Part shown: positions 1,943-6,355 of the stretch, one piece after another | How the letters are laid out: every line of letters begins with the position of its first letter | How positions within the stretch are numbered: position 1 is the stretch's first letter | Translations under genes and position numbers: made by a program | Assembly (NCBI GenBank): GCA_964372765.1 | Contig: CAYJSE010000002.1 | Location: 15,125-79,124 of the forward strand | Length of the DNA: 64,000 nucleotides | Reading direction: 5' to 3' | Origin: an uncultured Planctomycetia bacterium | GTDB taxonomy: Bacteria > Omnitrophota > Gorgyraeia > 2-02-FULL-51-18 > CAYJSE01 | The notes under the pieces: generated by a model | Told to the model about the DNA's origin: nothing | What the model saw: the letters and a program-made list of their open reading frames with translations, nothing else | Database searches by the model: none

Positions 1943-2359
1943 ATGAATCATTGGTATCGGTATTGGGTGTGGGTTTTGGTTGTGTCCTGGTTGGGTGTGG
2001 GCATCGCTTTTGCGGGGGACCCAGCTGATGAGTTGGAGGAGCCACTCGAGTTTAACTACAAGACGGTCACGACGGAACAGGGGCTTGTGTTTCGCGTGCC
2101 GCCGGACATGCCGATCGAGATGAAAAATGGCATGCAGACACCCGTTCCCTATGACGAGTACCTCGCCGCCAAAGTTTCCCGCATGGAGAAGCGTCTGATC
2201 AGCATCGACGAGCGTCTGGCGAAGATAGACGCCAGTCTCGCCAAACTCACCGAGCAAAAAAAGACCGACGAAGCGACCACAGCCTCTGCGTCCGAGGCTC
2301 CACCGGAAGTTCCCAAGCGACGTGTGACCGAGGGCGGACTACTCATTTCGGAGCAGTAA
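1943..2359 (+). CDS. hypothetical secreted/membrane-anchored coiled-coil protein
   Basis: Has a Trp-rich hydrophobic N-terminus (WYRYWVWVLVVSWLGVGIAFA) and a coiled-coil C-terminus. I recognise no family for it. Confidence 0.5.
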   Translation: MNHWYRYWVWVLVVSWLGVGIAFAGDPADELEEPLEFNYKTVTTEQGLVFRVPPDMPIEMKNGMQTPVPYDEYLAAKVSRMEKRLISIDERLAKIDASLAKLTEQKKTDEATTASASEAPPEVPKRRVTEGGLLISEQ

Positions 2360-2652
2360 ATTTATATGAAAGACACTCCAGCTTACATTCAAGAAAAAGT
2401 GTGCGAAATGTTCAGCCGTAAATCGGGCGAGGAGCGTCTTAAAATGGGCTGCTCGATGCACGATTCTTCAAAGAAACTGACGGCCGATTCTCTTGTGAGG
2501 GCTCATGGCGATTCGGCATAAGACCGCCAATGAGTTGGCCGATGAAGAAAAATAAAATTGTATTATTTGCCCTGATGGCTTTGTCGCTCGGCGACGGAGT
2601 TTTGTTTGCCGAGGATAGTGGTAATTTCCAGTCCAGTGAATAATGATAAATG

Positions 2653-2682
2653 TTAGACATTATGTATAACATATGGTATACT
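2653..2682 (+). promoter_or_regulatory. vapBC promoter (TTAGAC ... TATACT) overlapped by operator-like inverted repeats ATGTTA-N11-TAACAT and ACATTATGT
   Basis: A near-consensus -10 TATACT sits 24 nt upstream of the vapB ATG and is preceded by the SD AAGGGGGA. The palindromes are typical of TA autoregulation. Confidence 0.5.
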
Positions 2683-2705
2683 CCTGACAAGGGGGATTGA
2701 ATCCG

Positions 2706-2936
2706 ATGACACAGGTGACTATTCGGCAGCTGACGCATGGTTTCTCAGGTTATCTCAAGGCGGTCAAAAAAGGGGAGAGGATTGTGATTCTTGACCGGCG
2801 AACTCCGGTTGCTGATCTGATTCCGCATAACGAGAATCTTGCTCAGCCTGGCTGGAAACGCCCCATCACCAGAATTAAAGTCAAAGGTTTGAGCATGGCA
2901 GAAACGGTTTCAAAGATGCGAGATGAAGAAAGGTGA
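2706..2936 (+). CDS. vapB: type II antitoxin, Phd/YefM-like (VapB)
   Basis: Small protein whose N-terminus (TQVTIRQLTHGFSGYLKAVKKGERIVILDRRTPVADLIP) matches the Phd/YefM fold pattern. It overlaps the downstream PIN gene by GTGA. The ORF-track start at 2697 is TTG; the ATG at 2706 has a proper RBS. Confidence 0.6.
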   Translation: MTQVTIRQLTHGFSGYLKAVKKGERIVILDRRTPVADLIPHNENLAQPGWKRPITRIKVKGLSMAETVSKMRDEER

Positions 2937-3346
2937 GAGTTTTTATTGATACGTCCTCACTTTTCAAAAAATACATGGATGAGTCCGGCAGTAGTGATTT
3001 TGAGGAGTTGCTGGCCAAGGCATCCGAGATAGCGGTTTCGCCGATTACCTGGATGGAAGTCAATGCCGCCTTGGCGCGTTGTGTCCGAGGTCGTTTGTTG
3101 TCGGCCGAGCAGGCCGGTCAGCTGCGCGTGGAAGCGAAGAGAGATTTCACTTATTTTTTGAAGGTTATATGGAATGAGCACCTCGAAGATAAAACTGTGG
3201 AAATGATCCAAAAGTGTGAGTTGAAAACATTCGATGCGATGCAGTTGGCCTCCGGGATTTTGTCCGAAGCGGAACTTTTTGTAACGTCCGATAAAAAGCT
3301 GTATCAAGAAGCTAAAAAAATGGTTCACCATATTCGTTTTGTTTAA
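2933..3346 (+). CDS. vapC: PIN-domain ribonuclease toxin VapC
   Basis: MRVFIDTSSL (first acidic residue), TWMEVNAAL and FDAMQLA are classic VapC/PIN motifs. It starts at a GTG start 4 nt before the vapB stop. Confidence 0.8.
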   Translation: MRVFIDTSSLFKKYMDESGSSDFEELLAKASEIAVSPITWMEVNAALARCVRGRLLSAEQAGQLRVEAKRDFTYFLKVIWNEHLEDKTVEMIQKCELKTFDAMQLASGILSEAELFVTSDKKLYQEAKKMVHHIRFV

Positions 3347-3565
3347 CCAAACGTAGAATTTATATGAAAAAATTGTTTCTCCAAACATTCGGCTGGCCGT
3401 TGTTCTCCCGGCAGATTCGTCACAACAAGCGTGACGAATCAAAGCGCCGGGACAAGCGAGACTGCGATACTTCAAGTAGCGCTGGCGGGCGGGAGAGAAG
3501 GTTTGATTCTCAAGAGTCACTAATCTTAGGTAATTCTTAACAAAAATATGTTATACTTCTGAAAT

Positions 3566-4267
3566 ATGAGTCCACAAGCAGCGCAAAACGAAATCTATAA
3601 GAACTCTCCTCTAATCGAAGCTGTTTACGAGGTTCGATTTAGTTCTCTTTTATCCATTGAATCCAATCGTGACAAGTTTCACGACAAGATCAAAGATTCG
3701 TTTCCTGATGTAATCATCGGTAAATCGAATCCTGATCCGTATAGCTTTGAAAAACGCGATAAAAGTTGGTCGATTTTACTCTCCCCGACACTTATTGCGG
3801 TTTCTTGTAAAAAATACGAAGGTTTTCAGGCCTACAAAAAAGAATGTCTTAGGCTGCTGTCTATTTTTGGCGAGCTATTCAAAATCGAGAGAATGACAAG
3901 ATCGGGGTTGAGATACGTCAACATTATTCCTTTTACGAGAGAGGCGGGGGTGATTCCGCTCAAAGCTTTCTTGAATGTTGATATAAGCTTACCCAAATCT
4001 ATACCGTCAACATTCAAAACGGCGTCATTTATTTTTGTTTCTCAGTTGGAAAAGGGCAGCATTACTACACGAGTTGAGCCAGTGATGTCACCAGATCAAA
4101 GCCAAGAAGCTCTTATCCTTGATTTTGACTACGCGAAGGATGCCGATTTAAGCTATAAGAATCTTGACGGGTATTTGGAAGAAAGTCATGGGCACACAAA
4201 GGCACTTTTTGAAGGACTTGTTACGGATAGCTATCGAAAAATAATGCGTGGCGAGGTGGTTGCATGA
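3566..4267 (+). CDS. uncharacterised protein resembling the TIGR04255 family of unknown function (N-terminal Y.NSPLIEAVYEVRF and central RSGLRYVN motifs); first gene of a 3-gene coupled module in the low-GC island
   Basis: Family resemblance is from memory of the TIGR04255 signature, not a search. It is strongly AT-rich relative to flanks. It overlaps the next gene by ATGA. Confidence 0.4.
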   Translation: MSPQAAQNEIYKNSPLIEAVYEVRFSSLLSIESNRDKFHDKIKDSFPDVIIGKSNPDPYSFEKRDKSWSILLSPTLIAVSCKKYEGFQAYKKECLRLLSIFGELFKIERMTRSGLRYVNIIPFTREAGVIPLKAFLNVDISLPKSIPSTFKTASFIFVSQLEKGSITTRVEPVMSPDQSQEALILDFDYAKDADLSYKNLDGYLEESHGHTKALFEGLVTDSYRKIMRGEVVA

Positions 4268-4689
4268 GCGGTTTGGCGCTGGAAGAAACCTATAAGTTGG
4301 TCGAAGAAAGAAAAGCTTATTTTCCCAATAACTATAAGGGAGTGGCGCTTGCCATAGGAACTGCCTCTCAAATCAACCAACCCTCGTCATATTTATATTC
4401 GGGGCGGTTTAGCACTGCTCCGTTGATGGAGTTCCAGGCGGAACAGAGGACTTATGTAACCTCAAAGCCTATTCTTGTCAAAGTTTACAGGGAAGATGAC
4501 ATTTTTATTGCTGAGAACGAGAGCCTTGTTTTAAGCGGATCAGGAGCATCGCGTGAGGAAGCCGTTCTGGATTTCGTGAAGCACGTAGATTATTTTTATA
4601 ATTTTTATAAGCGTCAGAATGACAACAATTTGATGGGCGACGCTCTTAGATTAAAAAAGATTTACGCTAATCTTCTTGTTGAGACTTAA
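4264..4689 (+). CDS. HicB-fold (UPF0150/RNase-H-like) protein without obvious DNA-binding domain; putative antitoxin/partner
   Basis: The segment PILVKVYREDDIFIAENESLVLSGSGASREEAVLDFVKHV matches the HicB N-domain pattern (beta-strand, DDG-Y-A, then GeT-EEAL). It is coupled to the next gene by TAATG. Confidence 0.4.
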   Translation: MSGLALEETYKLVEERKAYFPNNYKGVALAIGTASQINQPSSYLYSGRFSTAPLMEFQAEQRTYVTSKPILVKVYREDDIFIAENESLVLSGSGASREEAVLDFVKHVDYFYNFYKRQNDNNLMGDALRLKKIYANLLVET

Positions 4690-4970
4690 TGCAGATCGAA
4701 AAGCGAGATGTTGAATCATCTCTTCCCAAAAAGGGCTTTGAACGGGACGCAAGTAGAGATCATATTTACTTCAATCATCGCTATCAAGGAAAGTACACAG
4801 GCATTTCTACGTATGTATCTCATGGAGCCAAATCCATTGGAGACCCGCTGATTCAGCAGATGAAAAAGCAACTTCACCTTAATAATTCCCACCAAGTTGT
4901 AGACCTGGTTAATTGTCCGATTTCGAGCGAAGAGTATATTCAGATATTGAAGACTAAGGGGCAACTGTAA
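4689..4970 (+). CDS. HicA-like mRNA-interferase toxin homologue with ~28-aa C-terminal extension
   Basis: LPKKGFERDASRDHIYF ... ISTYVSHGAKSIGDPLIQQMKKQLHL follows the HicA pattern GF..(G)SH..(F/Y) ... (V)..H. .k.I..m..ql.L. The HicA pattern is recalled from memory. Confidence 0.45.
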   Translation: MQIEKRDVESSLPKKGFERDASRDHIYFNHRYQGKYTGISTYVSHGAKSIGDPLIQQMKKQLHLNNSHQVVDLVNCPISSEEYIQILKTKGQL

Positions 4971-5038
4971 AATAACCACTCGGTTCTGATTACCCCAGAA
5001 GGCGCAGTTCTCTTAAACACCAAACAGGACAAGGATTT

Positions 5039-6355
5039 ATGCGAAAGTTTTACATTTGCACCTTCGGCTGCCAAATGAATGAGCGGGATTCGGAGGCCGT
5101 GACGGGTCTCTTGCTGGATCGTGGGTACGAGTCGACCCAGGACCCGGAGACCGCGGACTTGCTTCTTTATAATACCTGCAGTGTGCGCGATCACGCGGAG
5201 CAAAAAGTGTTTGGCCGCATGGGAACGTTTGCGAAGCTAAAGGCGCGCAACCCAAAGCTCGTGATCGGGATTTTGGGCTGCATGGCGCAGGAGCACGGAG
5301 ATAATTTTTTTAAAAAAAACCCGGAGATTGATATCGTTTGCGGCACGGGGAATTTAAGCCAGATCGCGGATTTGGTGGAGGAAATTGAATACCGTCGCGC
5401 GCCGGTGGTGGCGATTGATAAATTGGACGACGCGTACGGTCTCGACGGGATTCACTATCGCCGTGACGCGCTGAAGGCGCTGGTGACGATCATGAAGGGC
5501 TGCGACCATCGCTGCACGTACTGTATCGTGCCCTACACGCGCGGCCAGGAGATTTCTAGATCTTCCGAAAGTGTTTTGCGCGAAACCAAAGACTTGGAGC
5601 GGCGTGGATTTAAAGACGTGATGCTTCTCGGGCAAAATGTGAATTCTTACGGCAAGGGGTTGGTGGAGGGGGTTGATTTTTCCGATCTTTTGGACAAAAT
5701 TCAAAACACCGCGCCGGCCATCCCGCGCTTACGGTTTATCACAAGCCACCCCAAGGATGCGCATACGAAACTTTTCCACACGATGCGCGATTTGCCGATG
5801 GTGTGCGAACACCTGCATCTGCCGGTGCAGTCAGGGTCCGACCGGATTTTGAAACGCATGAAGCGCGAGCACACAAGCGAATGGTATCGGGAGCAGGTCG
5901 ACGAGTACAAAGCCGTGGTTCCCGATGGGACGCTCACGACGGACTTTATCGTCGGGTTTCCGGGTGAGACCGAGCAAGATTTTAACGAAACGCTCGCGCT
6001 TGCCGAGCGCATCGAGTTTGACAGCGCGTTTATTTTCAAATATTCGCCTAGGCCGGGCACGCCGGCGTTGAATCTTGAAGACGACGTGCCGGAAACCGAA
6101 AAGGATAGGCGCTTGCAGACACTTCTATCTCTGCAGCGGGCCGTGGGTCTCAAGAAAAACCAGTCTTGGATCGGCAGAGATCTCGAAGTACTTTTTGAGT
6201 CCAAAACCAAAAGAGATGAAAACCGGTATTTCGGCCGCACGCGCGGATTTAAGCGCGTCGTAGTCTCCTCGGCGGAGGATCTGTGTGGAAAATTCCGTCA
6301 TGTGCGGATCACATCCGCGGCGGACGAAACGTTGGTCGGGGAAATTCGTTCTTGA
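5039..6355 (+). CDS. miaB: tRNA-i6A37 methylthiotransferase MiaB (radical SAM, C-terminal TRAM)
   Basis: FYICTFGCQMN, the CxxxCxxC motif (CDHRCTYC) and a TRAM-like C-terminus. Confidence 0.95.
   Translation: MRKFYICTFGCQMNERDSEAVTGLLLDRGYESTQDPETADLLLYNTCSVRDHAEQKVFGRMGTFAKLKARNPKLVIGILGCMAQEHGDNFFKKNPEIDIVCGTGNLSQIADLVEEIEYRRAPVVAIDKLDDAYGLDGIHYRRDALKALVTIMKGCDHRCTYCIVPYTRGQEISRSSESVLRETKDLERRGFKDVMLLGQNVNSYGKGLVEGVDFSDLLDKIQNTAPAIPRLRFITSHPKDAHTKLFHTMRDLPMVCEHLHLPVQSGSDRILKRMKREHTSEWYREQVDEYKAVVPDGTLTTDFIVGFPGETEQDFNETLALAERIEFDSAFIFKYSPRPGTPALNLEDDVPETEKDRRLQTLLSLQRAVGLKKNQSWIGRDLEVLFESKTKRDENRYFGRTRGFKRVVVSSAEDLCGKFRHVRITSAADETLVGEIRS

Follow-up and report, generated by a model that had tools for sequence, protein, structure and literature searches.

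Toxins of the HicA type occur in a range of genetic contexts that have been sorted into 14 classes (Gerdes, 2024, mBio, PMC10865869). The class nearest to the locus described here is Class 8, a bioinformatic class in which a HicA of ~95 aa, modelled with AlphaFold2 (AF2) as a double-stranded RNA-binding domain (dsRBD) fold with two conserved additional C-terminal helices, is preceded by an overlapping gene for a HicB of 331-376 aa that has its HicB fold in the C-terminal part and two extra N-terminal domains (PMC10865869). Neither Class 8 protein has a DNA-binding domain, and how hicBA modules without such a domain are controlled is a question posed in the same work (PMC10865869). Here, we describe a locus in which a short relative of a Class 8 hicBA pair is preceded by a separate gene of the TIGR04255 family. 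The three genes, referred to as g1, g2 and g3, occupy positions 3566-4970 of a 64,000-nt stretch of contig CAYJSE010000002.1 (assembly GCA_964372765.1), from an uncultured bacterium assigned to the Omnitrophota; we refer to the whole of this stretch as the window.

Two further systems have components shared among several toxins. In toxin-antitoxin-chaperone (TAC) systems, a SecB-like chaperone binds an unstructured extension (ChAD) of HigA, MqsA or HicB antitoxins, deciding toxin restraint, such that one third component serves several toxin-antitoxin (TA) families, namely HigBA, MqsRA and HicAB (Bordes, 2016, PMC5105189). Panacea is a hyperpromiscuous antitoxin domain that is paired with many unrelated toxins (NetFlax; Ernits, 2023, PMC10440598); the NetFlax paper makes no mention of tripartite or TIGR04255 modules.

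We consider it probable that the g1-g2-g3 trio is a mobile, translationally coupled tripartite TA-type module, most likely a phage defence or addiction cassette; we infer the functional part of this reading from sequence, predicted structure and gene context. The parts of the locus are as follows.

3566-4267, forward strand: g1, a TIGR04255 family protein of 233 aa; presumed regulatory or accessory component.
4264-4689, forward strand: g2, 141 aa, an N-terminal half followed by a HicB-like C-terminal domain.
4264-4449, forward strand: N-terminal half of g2, residues 1-62; proposed contact for g1.
4450-4689, forward strand: C-terminal domain of g2, residues 63-141, with a HicB-like beta-beta-beta-alpha-alpha-beta fold; presumed toxin neutraliser.
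4689-4970, forward strand: g3, 93 aa, a HicA-like core with a C-terminal extension.
4689-4877, forward strand: core of g3, residues 1-63, a HicA-like domain of dsRBD type that holds the presumed catalytic His25; presumed RNase toxin.
4878-4970, forward strand: C-terminal extension of g3, residues 64-93, with a Cys76-Pro77 motif; counterpart of the two extra helices of Class 8 HicA.
4253-4267, forward strand: g1/g2 junction, with GAGGTG at 4253-4258 and an ATGA stop-start overlap at 4264-4267.
4687-4691, forward strand: g2/g3 junction, a TAATG stop-start overlap read from the sequence.

The initial annotation of this DNA had described three open reading frames (ORFs) coupled by ATGA and TAATG overlaps, and both overlaps are present. 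The GAGGTG motif resembles a Shine-Dalgarno sequence and lies inside the 3' end of g1, five bases ahead of the g2 start.

To relate g2 and g3 to the published class, we used the Class 8 sequences of Table S1 of Gerdes (2024), with the Thermococcus litoralis pair WP_004069337.1/WP_004069339.1 as the exemplar. BLASTP comparison of g3 with the exemplar HicA (WP_004069339.1) gave 34% identity over residues 3-93 (E 7e-19), an alignment that spans the C-terminal extension, and a hidden Markov model (HMM) of the g3 family matched the exemplar HicA with an E-value of 1.8e-27. The g2 family HMM, through its positions 62-133, matched residues 262-333 of the exemplar HicB (E 3e-16). These matches identify g3 as a Class 8-type HicA, and the C-terminal domain of g2 as the matching HicB domain. 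By homology, g2 and g3 are related to the published Class 8 hicBA but with a short HicB, and hence the core of the module is already described. Both have hicB followed by hicA, overlapping genes, a HicB-fold domain at the C-terminus of the antitoxin and no DNA-binding domain, and in both the HicA is ~95 aa long with extra C-terminal helices that include a Cys-Pro motif. By contrast, Class 8 is bicistronic with a single three-domain HicB, whereas the window has a 141-aa HicB after a separate TIGR04255 gene, with homology restricted to the C-terminal domain. The three-gene form is not described in Gerdes (2024), and "TIGR04255" is absent from the text of that paper and from the supplements searched, one of them in part. 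Thus, the proposal that the module was undescribed holds for the separate TIGR04255 gene and fails for the g2-g3 core. We also considered whether the N-terminal part of Class 8 HicB (255 residues) might be a fused TIGR04255 protein, and rejected this possibility (hhalign probability <=2%).

A second Class 8-type pair, found independently, lies on plasmid pGM3709_06 of Geminocystis sp. NIES-3709 (L098), where the genes for a 356-aa HicB and a 95-aa HicA overlap and no g1 is present. This pair crosses the origin of the circular record, with a tyrosine recombinase gene nearby, and the large gene is missing from the gene table of the plasmid because the pair spans the record start.

As the initial annotation had also proposed, g1 is a member of TIGR04255 by its match to the NCBIfam model (111.5 bits against a cut-off of 30 bits; E 5.8e-32; model positions 2-251 of 252). 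TIGR04255 relatives in other loci score 82-150 bits. The family is defined as uncharacterised and "sporadically distributed", and a search across 8 million full texts found no paper naming TIGR04255 or its InterPro aliases. There was no match for g1 in Pfam (SecB included) or PADLOC, and PHROGs gave just a partial match to one PHROG of unknown function; PDB sequence searches with g1 alone and with two family profiles found no solved homologue. The polar residues invariant in TIGR04255 comprise a Glu-x3-Glu-x-Arg motif close to the N-terminus, a central Arg-Tyr-x-Asn/Asp, an Asp-x-Asp, and a His late in the sequence.

We measured co-conservation of the three genes in two ways. Among close relatives of g2 and g3 in a large protein collection (~17-27 for each), the trio was present on every contig that was long enough. 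A genome scan seeded with a g1 alignment yielded 79 loci, in which the ORFs were searched with HMMs of g1, g2 and g3. The core set comprises 68 loci with a g1 at least about 33% identical to that of the window, 67 of which extend past g1. A g2 homologue lies directly downstream of g1 in all 67 of these evaluable loci, with strand and order kept, and a g3 homologue follows g2 in 66 of the 67 (frameshifted in one of the 66); the remaining locus carries a remnant. The g1/g2 junction in related loci is usually a 4-nt or 1-nt overlap, and the g2/g3 junction varies between an overlap of 13 nt and a gap of 4 nt. The hosts are Planctomycetota, Nitrospirota, Omnitrophota, Elusimicrobiota, Zixibacteria, Acidobacteriota, Desulfobacterota, Actinomycetota, Spirochaetota and others. 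The trio arrangement is far from chance. Recurrent adjacency of TIGR04255 genes to HicB- and HicA-like genes, raised in the initial annotation, is therefore borne out, and the association extends beyond HicA (see below). The tripartite TA or defence reading put forward there likewise gains support from family membership, the predicted fold of g2 and co-conservation.

These counts bear on a simpler explanation, namely that g2 and g3 are an ordinary two-gene hicBA and g1 is an unrelated passenger neighbour on the island. It is true that Class 8 hicBA and the Geminocystis plasmid pair occur without a TIGR04255 gene, and that no similarity between g1 and the N-terminal region of Class 8 HicB could be detected. 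However, every evaluable locus that has a short g2 (~140 aa) also has g1, overlapping by 1 or 4 nt, across many phyla and between unrelated flanks; the distances of g1 co-vary with those of g2 after controlling for g3; and TIGR04255 genes are likewise found upstream of other toxin pairs. We consider it very improbable that g1 is a passenger.

The covariation was measured in a mirror-tree comparison, using pairwise distance matrices for 59 non-redundant trios and partial correlations that control for the other parts. The N-terminal half of g2 had a partial correlation of 0.41 with g1 and of -0.10 with the g3 core, and the C-terminal domain of g2 had partial correlations of 0.48 with the g3 core and 0.54 with g1; the value for g1 and the g3 core was 0.13. 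These values hint that g2 is a bridge between g1 and g3, and are a hint rather than proof because shared ancestry among pairs was uncorrected.

Decayed loci provide a further view of the module. One locus (L031) retains a 20-codon remnant of g3, and in another (L032) g3 is frameshifted; g1 and g2 are intact in both. Loss of g3 with retention of g1 and g2 fits the decay typical of TA systems. At a third locus (L087, 4007-4547), a deletion runs from approximately codon 50 of g1 to approximately codon 105 of g2, and g3 is intact with a GTG start. Separately, g2 and g3 read as one 240-aa ORF in Candidatus Scalindua rubra (L019, 4705-5427), with a change of frame in the last approximately eight codons of g2; we did not adopt this fusion as a Rosetta-stone argument, as it is a single case, which could be a genuine fusion or could stem from misassembly. 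We also rejected the idea of a conserved fourth gene upstream of g1, the upstream ORFs of 137-149 aa in the window, L001 and L006 being mutually unrelated.

The association of TIGR04255 with downstream gene pairs extends well beyond g2 and g3. The distant TIGR04255 loci of the genome scan (9 genome loci) have no g2 or g3, yet two genes are closely linked downstream of TIGR04255 in them. Scanning metagenomes with a broad TIGR04255 alignment added 80 further loci of a 257-aa subfamily, and nearly all of the complete ones consist of the TIGR04255 gene, a middle ORF (110-220 aa) that overlaps or adjoins it, and a third ORF. The middle ORFs fall into 24 BLAST clusters with essentially no Pfam matches, and the third ORFs into 13 clusters. 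The commonest third gene, present in 44 of 75 loci, belongs to a family that has no annotation, is 172-227 aa long and shares QGD(I/F) and (S/T)Q(S/D)CD motifs (e.g. L093 3264-3788 and L092 5135-5767; loci L092-L176); it has no Pfam match except one weak match to DUF4411, and may be a new toxin family. PIN-domain third ORFs form a cluster of 13 loci plus two singletons, and Pfam PIN was matched by 12 of the 56 non-redundant third-gene proteins scanned (best E 1.5e-15). One third ORF is a PemK/MazF protein (Pfam E 2.1e-13), and one member of a five-locus cluster matches Pfam HEPN (E 7.8e-7). The recurrence of the same layout with PIN, MazF, HEPN or other third genes identifies TIGR04255, at the level of sequence, as the shared first gene of three-gene cassettes with exchangeable putative third-gene toxins.

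We give an even chance to the broader proposition that TIGR04255 marks a large unrecognised class of tripartite TA or defence modules, in which one conserved protein governs many unrelated adaptor-toxin pairs and of which the window represents the HicA branch. In that class, the governing TIGR04255 protein would be a sensor, a dedicated chaperone or an enzyme, and the toxins would be of HicA-type, PIN, MazF, HEPN and at least one new family. What is new is the obligatory TIGR04255 partner, together with the finding that TIGR04255 heads cassettes with several classic toxin families, and the first-position link gives the family a testable role. If the proposition is true, TIGR04255 would be a second, much more varied shared third component in TA systems, after the SecB-type TAC chaperones. 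It would also bear on the question raised by Gerdes of how hicBA is controlled without a DNA-binding domain, since in the TIGR04255 branch a separate protein may supply that control.

In the mechanism that we propose, g3 would be a Class 8 HicA-type RNA-cleaving toxin, with a dsRBD-like core and a catalytic His, and g2 would be its antitoxin, the HicB-fold C-terminal sheet binding and masking g3 in the way modelled for other HicAB classes (PMC10865869). In place of a DNA-binding domain, g2 would have a flexible N-terminal extension, and g1 would act on g2, probably through this flexible half, by affecting its stability, folding or release; alternatively, g1 could sense the trigger. g1 would be a reusable hub, other TIGR04255 subfamilies being placed ahead of different middle-protein/toxin pairs. 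TAC is the nearest functional precedent. TAC and the trio each have three genes, a third component common to several TA families (those with HicA-like, PIN, MazF and HEPN toxins in the case of TIGR04255) and an antitoxin with an extra segment, unstructured in TAC (the ChAD) and probably so in g2 (the N-terminal half, which is of low confidence in the model). However, the SecB component of TAC is encoded last and its target is a C-terminal extension, whereas TIGR04255 is encoded first and the extension is N-terminal, and chaperone activity is a hypothesis for g1. Panacea resembles TIGR04255 in being one conserved element with many unrelated toxin partners, but is a domain within the antitoxin of two-gene systems, whereas TIGR04255 is a separate protein of three-gene systems.

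A role for g1 as a sensor in abortive infection suits the layout and the genomic contexts equally well. According to this alternative, g1 would respond to a phage cue or small molecule by freeing the toxin from g2, and the module would serve defence rather than addiction, with no chaperone involved. Defence systems are usually laid out with a conserved first gene and effectors that can be exchanged; the neighbours include restriction, TA and recombinase genes; and a binding pocket is suggested by the polar residues that are invariant in TIGR04255. There are also links to phages. A prophage on a megaplasmid of the cultured strain Pantoea sp. Lij88 (L184, 3983-5831; NZ_CP118267.1, 170558-172406) has a gene annotated as TIGR04255 with two hypothetical genes (189 and 149 aa) behind it, and this trio lies between the holin/lysozyme genes and the small terminase subunit gene. 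The lysis-to-terminase interval is a usual site of phage-carried (moron) defence genes. A lone 81-aa homologue of the g2 C-terminal domain (L181, 821-1066; HMM E 3.5e-33) is found, with no g1 or g3, on a 2.4-kb contig between a gene with an N-terminal helix-turn-helix (HTH) that resembles a small terminase subunit and a gene that resembles a large terminase subunit; it could be a phage-carried antitoxin decoy. A Foldseek search also matched the whole g2 model to a 155-aa Siphoviridae protein (E 1.8e-6), and this match and the lone copy agree with phage conflict. By contrast, no PADLOC model matches, and viral contigs yielded almost no relatives: scans with g2 and with the phage-borne g2-like protein found none, and a scan with the TIGR04255 alignment found one distant locus only. 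No relatives were found by tblastn of phage records with TIGR04255 proteins, or by blastn of E. coli genomes with the Pantoea trio DNA. The sensor explanation overlaps the tripartite TA-type module proposed above, differing in the role of g1 alone, and we consider it rather unlikely.

The assignment of g3 as a HicA-type toxin is supported by several comparisons in addition to that with Class 8. The match of g3 to Pfam HicA_toxin (PF07927) covers profile positions 2-57 of 58 but, at 17.6 bits (E 0.0042), is below the gathering threshold of 27 bits. HicA is the sole Pfam family matched repeatedly by relatives of g3, with matches from 14 of the 18 close and 13 of the 45 diverse sequences (best E 1.1e-5). 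Using canonical HicA sequences from E. coli K-12 and from loci collected in this analysis, hhalign matched g3 to a two-sequence profile with 55% probability (E 1.2e-4) and to a five-sequence profile with 74% probability (P 2.8e-5, 65 columns). In these alignments, His25 of g3 aligns with the His of E. coli HicA (GSNH), and His25 is kept in 66 of 68 g3 family members. Residues in the tail are at least as well conserved, with Cys76 and Leu87 present in all 68 relatives, and Tyr83 in 67 of them. The initial description of the third gene as HicA-like with an extension is thus sustained by Class 8 homology; the five-sequence hhalign match is suggestive, and the Pfam HicA model places it below threshold. 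A winged-helix assignment was rejected; matches to MecI had E-values of ~0.02-0.03, and one helix only precedes the KGF motif.

The same evidence bears on the possibility that the trio is not a toxin system but a complex that binds or processes RNA, in which g3 would be a dsRBD-like RNA binder without catalytic activity. The sub-threshold Pfam score of g3 and the retention of g3 without g2 in L087 are in keeping with this idea, as is the position of the trio on two metagenome contigs (L013, 4530-9760, and L014) between an archease gene and an intein-containing gene for the RtcB RNA ligase, i.e. among genes of RNA repair. However, 66 of 68 relatives keep the His that aligns with the catalytic His of HicA; in sister modules, the place of g3 is taken by classic toxins (PIN, MazF and HEPN); the trio is patchily distributed, mobile and of low GC content; and L031 and L032, which have lost g3 but not g2, fit toxin decay. 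We therefore consider a non-toxic complex improbable.

The trio and the canonical HicAB pair of E. coli K-12 share a dsRBD-type toxin pattern with the His aligned, and an antitoxin with a partial RNase H-like/dsRBD-like beta-beta-beta-alpha fold. However, the gene order in canonical HicAB is reversed and its HicB carries an HTH or ribbon-helix-helix (RHH) at the C-terminus, whereas in the trio g2 has no DNA-binding domain, g3 is sub-threshold in Pfam and has a 30-residue tail, and there is an extra upstream gene.

g2 had no family match in Pfam, NCBIfam, PADLOC or PHROGs, and the Pfam HicB and HicB-like antitoxin models matched neither g2 nor any of 134 family members. An exhaustive profile search returned 391 cluster representatives with E <=0.001, and of the 150 listed, most are 130-150 aa long. 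We modelled g2 with AF2 from a 134-sequence alignment (md8c5aa1d6190), which gave a mean predicted local distance difference test (pLDDT) score of 81.8, with residues 50-140 at 89-96; an earlier run with a shallow alignment (pLDDT 48) was discarded. In the model, four strands are followed by a long helix, another helix and a short strand, and the C-terminal half forms a partial RNase H-like/dsRBD-like beta-beta-beta-alpha(-beta) domain, as in the N-domain of HicB. In a local hhalign comparison with six sequences of the HicB N-domain, g2 matched with 53% probability across the strand-strand-helix core. No DNA-binding Pfam model matched g2, and past the core the model has just a helix (126-137) and a 3-residue strand, such that neither the HTH nor the RHH of classical (Class 3 and 4) HicB antitoxins is present; g2 is thus predicted to have no DNA-binding domain. 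Both parts of the initial claim for the second gene, a HicB-like C-terminal fold and the lack of an RHH or HTH, therefore agree with the model. A Foldseek search of PDB with the model gave weak matches (best E 0.19), and sequence and profile searches of PDB with g2 and its alignments found no homologue.

The first 50 residues of g2 comprise one helix (3-17) followed by a low-confidence stretch, with pLDDT <50 at residues 34-47 and pLDDT values of 63-78 within the first 30 residues. The low-confidence segment is probably disordered, as judged from the model. The N-terminal half, unassigned here as in the initial annotation, is the fastest-evolving part of the module (mean pairwise distance 0.83); residues invariant in close g2 orthologues are P21, Y24, G32-T33-A34, F49, P53 and F57. 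Among the 134 relatives of g2, 52 match Pfam PHD_like (PF12910) in the region of the C-terminal domain, all sub-threshold. Antitoxins of the Swol_0700 type (PDB 3k6q), which belong to PF12910, differ from g2 in that the window g2 has no match to this family and the N-terminal halves are unlike.

Several observations weigh against the interpretation of the trio as a tripartite TA-type module. g3 falls short of the Pfam HicA threshold, and sequence and profile searches of PDB with g3 gave no homologue and reach no solved HicA chain. The intact g3 without g2 in L087 is awkward for a strongly toxic g3, although the GTG start at that locus and a possible second copy in trans could mitigate this. 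The invariant Glu, Arg, Tyr, Asp and His residues of TIGR04255 look more like a pocket or active site than the surface of a generic chaperone, and no PDB, Pfam or PADLOC match reveals the fold or activity of g1. In PADLOC-DB v2.0.0, no meaningful match was found for g1, g2 or g3, the sole match being that of g3 to a Type I specificity subunit (E 0.022). The mirror-tree correlations are exploratory, the pairs being non-independent. Finally, simple scans detected neither a promoter upstream of g1 nor a terminator downstream of g3.

The cassettes are short (~1.4 kb) and self-contained. In the window, GC content over 3501-5000 is 38-44%, and that of the flanks on both sides is ~52-58%. Housekeeping genes begin downstream of the trio with a gene for a 438-aa radical-SAM (UPF0004 family) enzyme from 5039, a label taken from the annotation of an identical contig. 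Two further ORFs lie upstream of g1.

2697-2936, upstream of g1: Phd/YefM-like ORF, 79 aa; sub-threshold in Pfam (E 1.9e-4).
2933-3346, upstream of g1: PIN-domain ORF (VapC), 137 aa; Pfam E 3.5e-13.

Together, these ORFs form a canonical overlapping two-gene pair of a Phd/YefM-like antitoxin and a PIN VapC (2697-3346), with a GC content of 44-48%, in agreement with the initial placement of the trio on a low-GC island next to vapBC. A repeat search, Rfam, and promoter and terminator scans over 2000-6000 gave nothing above chance; a promoter-like site lies at 2654-2682, ahead of the Phd/PIN pair.

The flanks vary between trio loci, and mobile or defence genes are frequent. They include resolvases/serine recombinases at some loci, an MmeI-type methyltransferase with a PLD-helicase, and a methyltransferase-Mrr fusion with a PLD nuclease, and one flank is an island with ParE, MazE, Fic, HipBA, an SNF2-SWIM pair and a Schlafen-type ATPase. 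Small, ordinary hicBA pairs (a HicB-like protein of 66-80 aa plus HicA) also occur within a few kb of TIGR04255 loci, at 1589-1957 in L035, directly downstream of g3, at 217-632 in L054, and at 2627-3009 and 6773-7227 in L086; their presence fits the clustering of TA genes.

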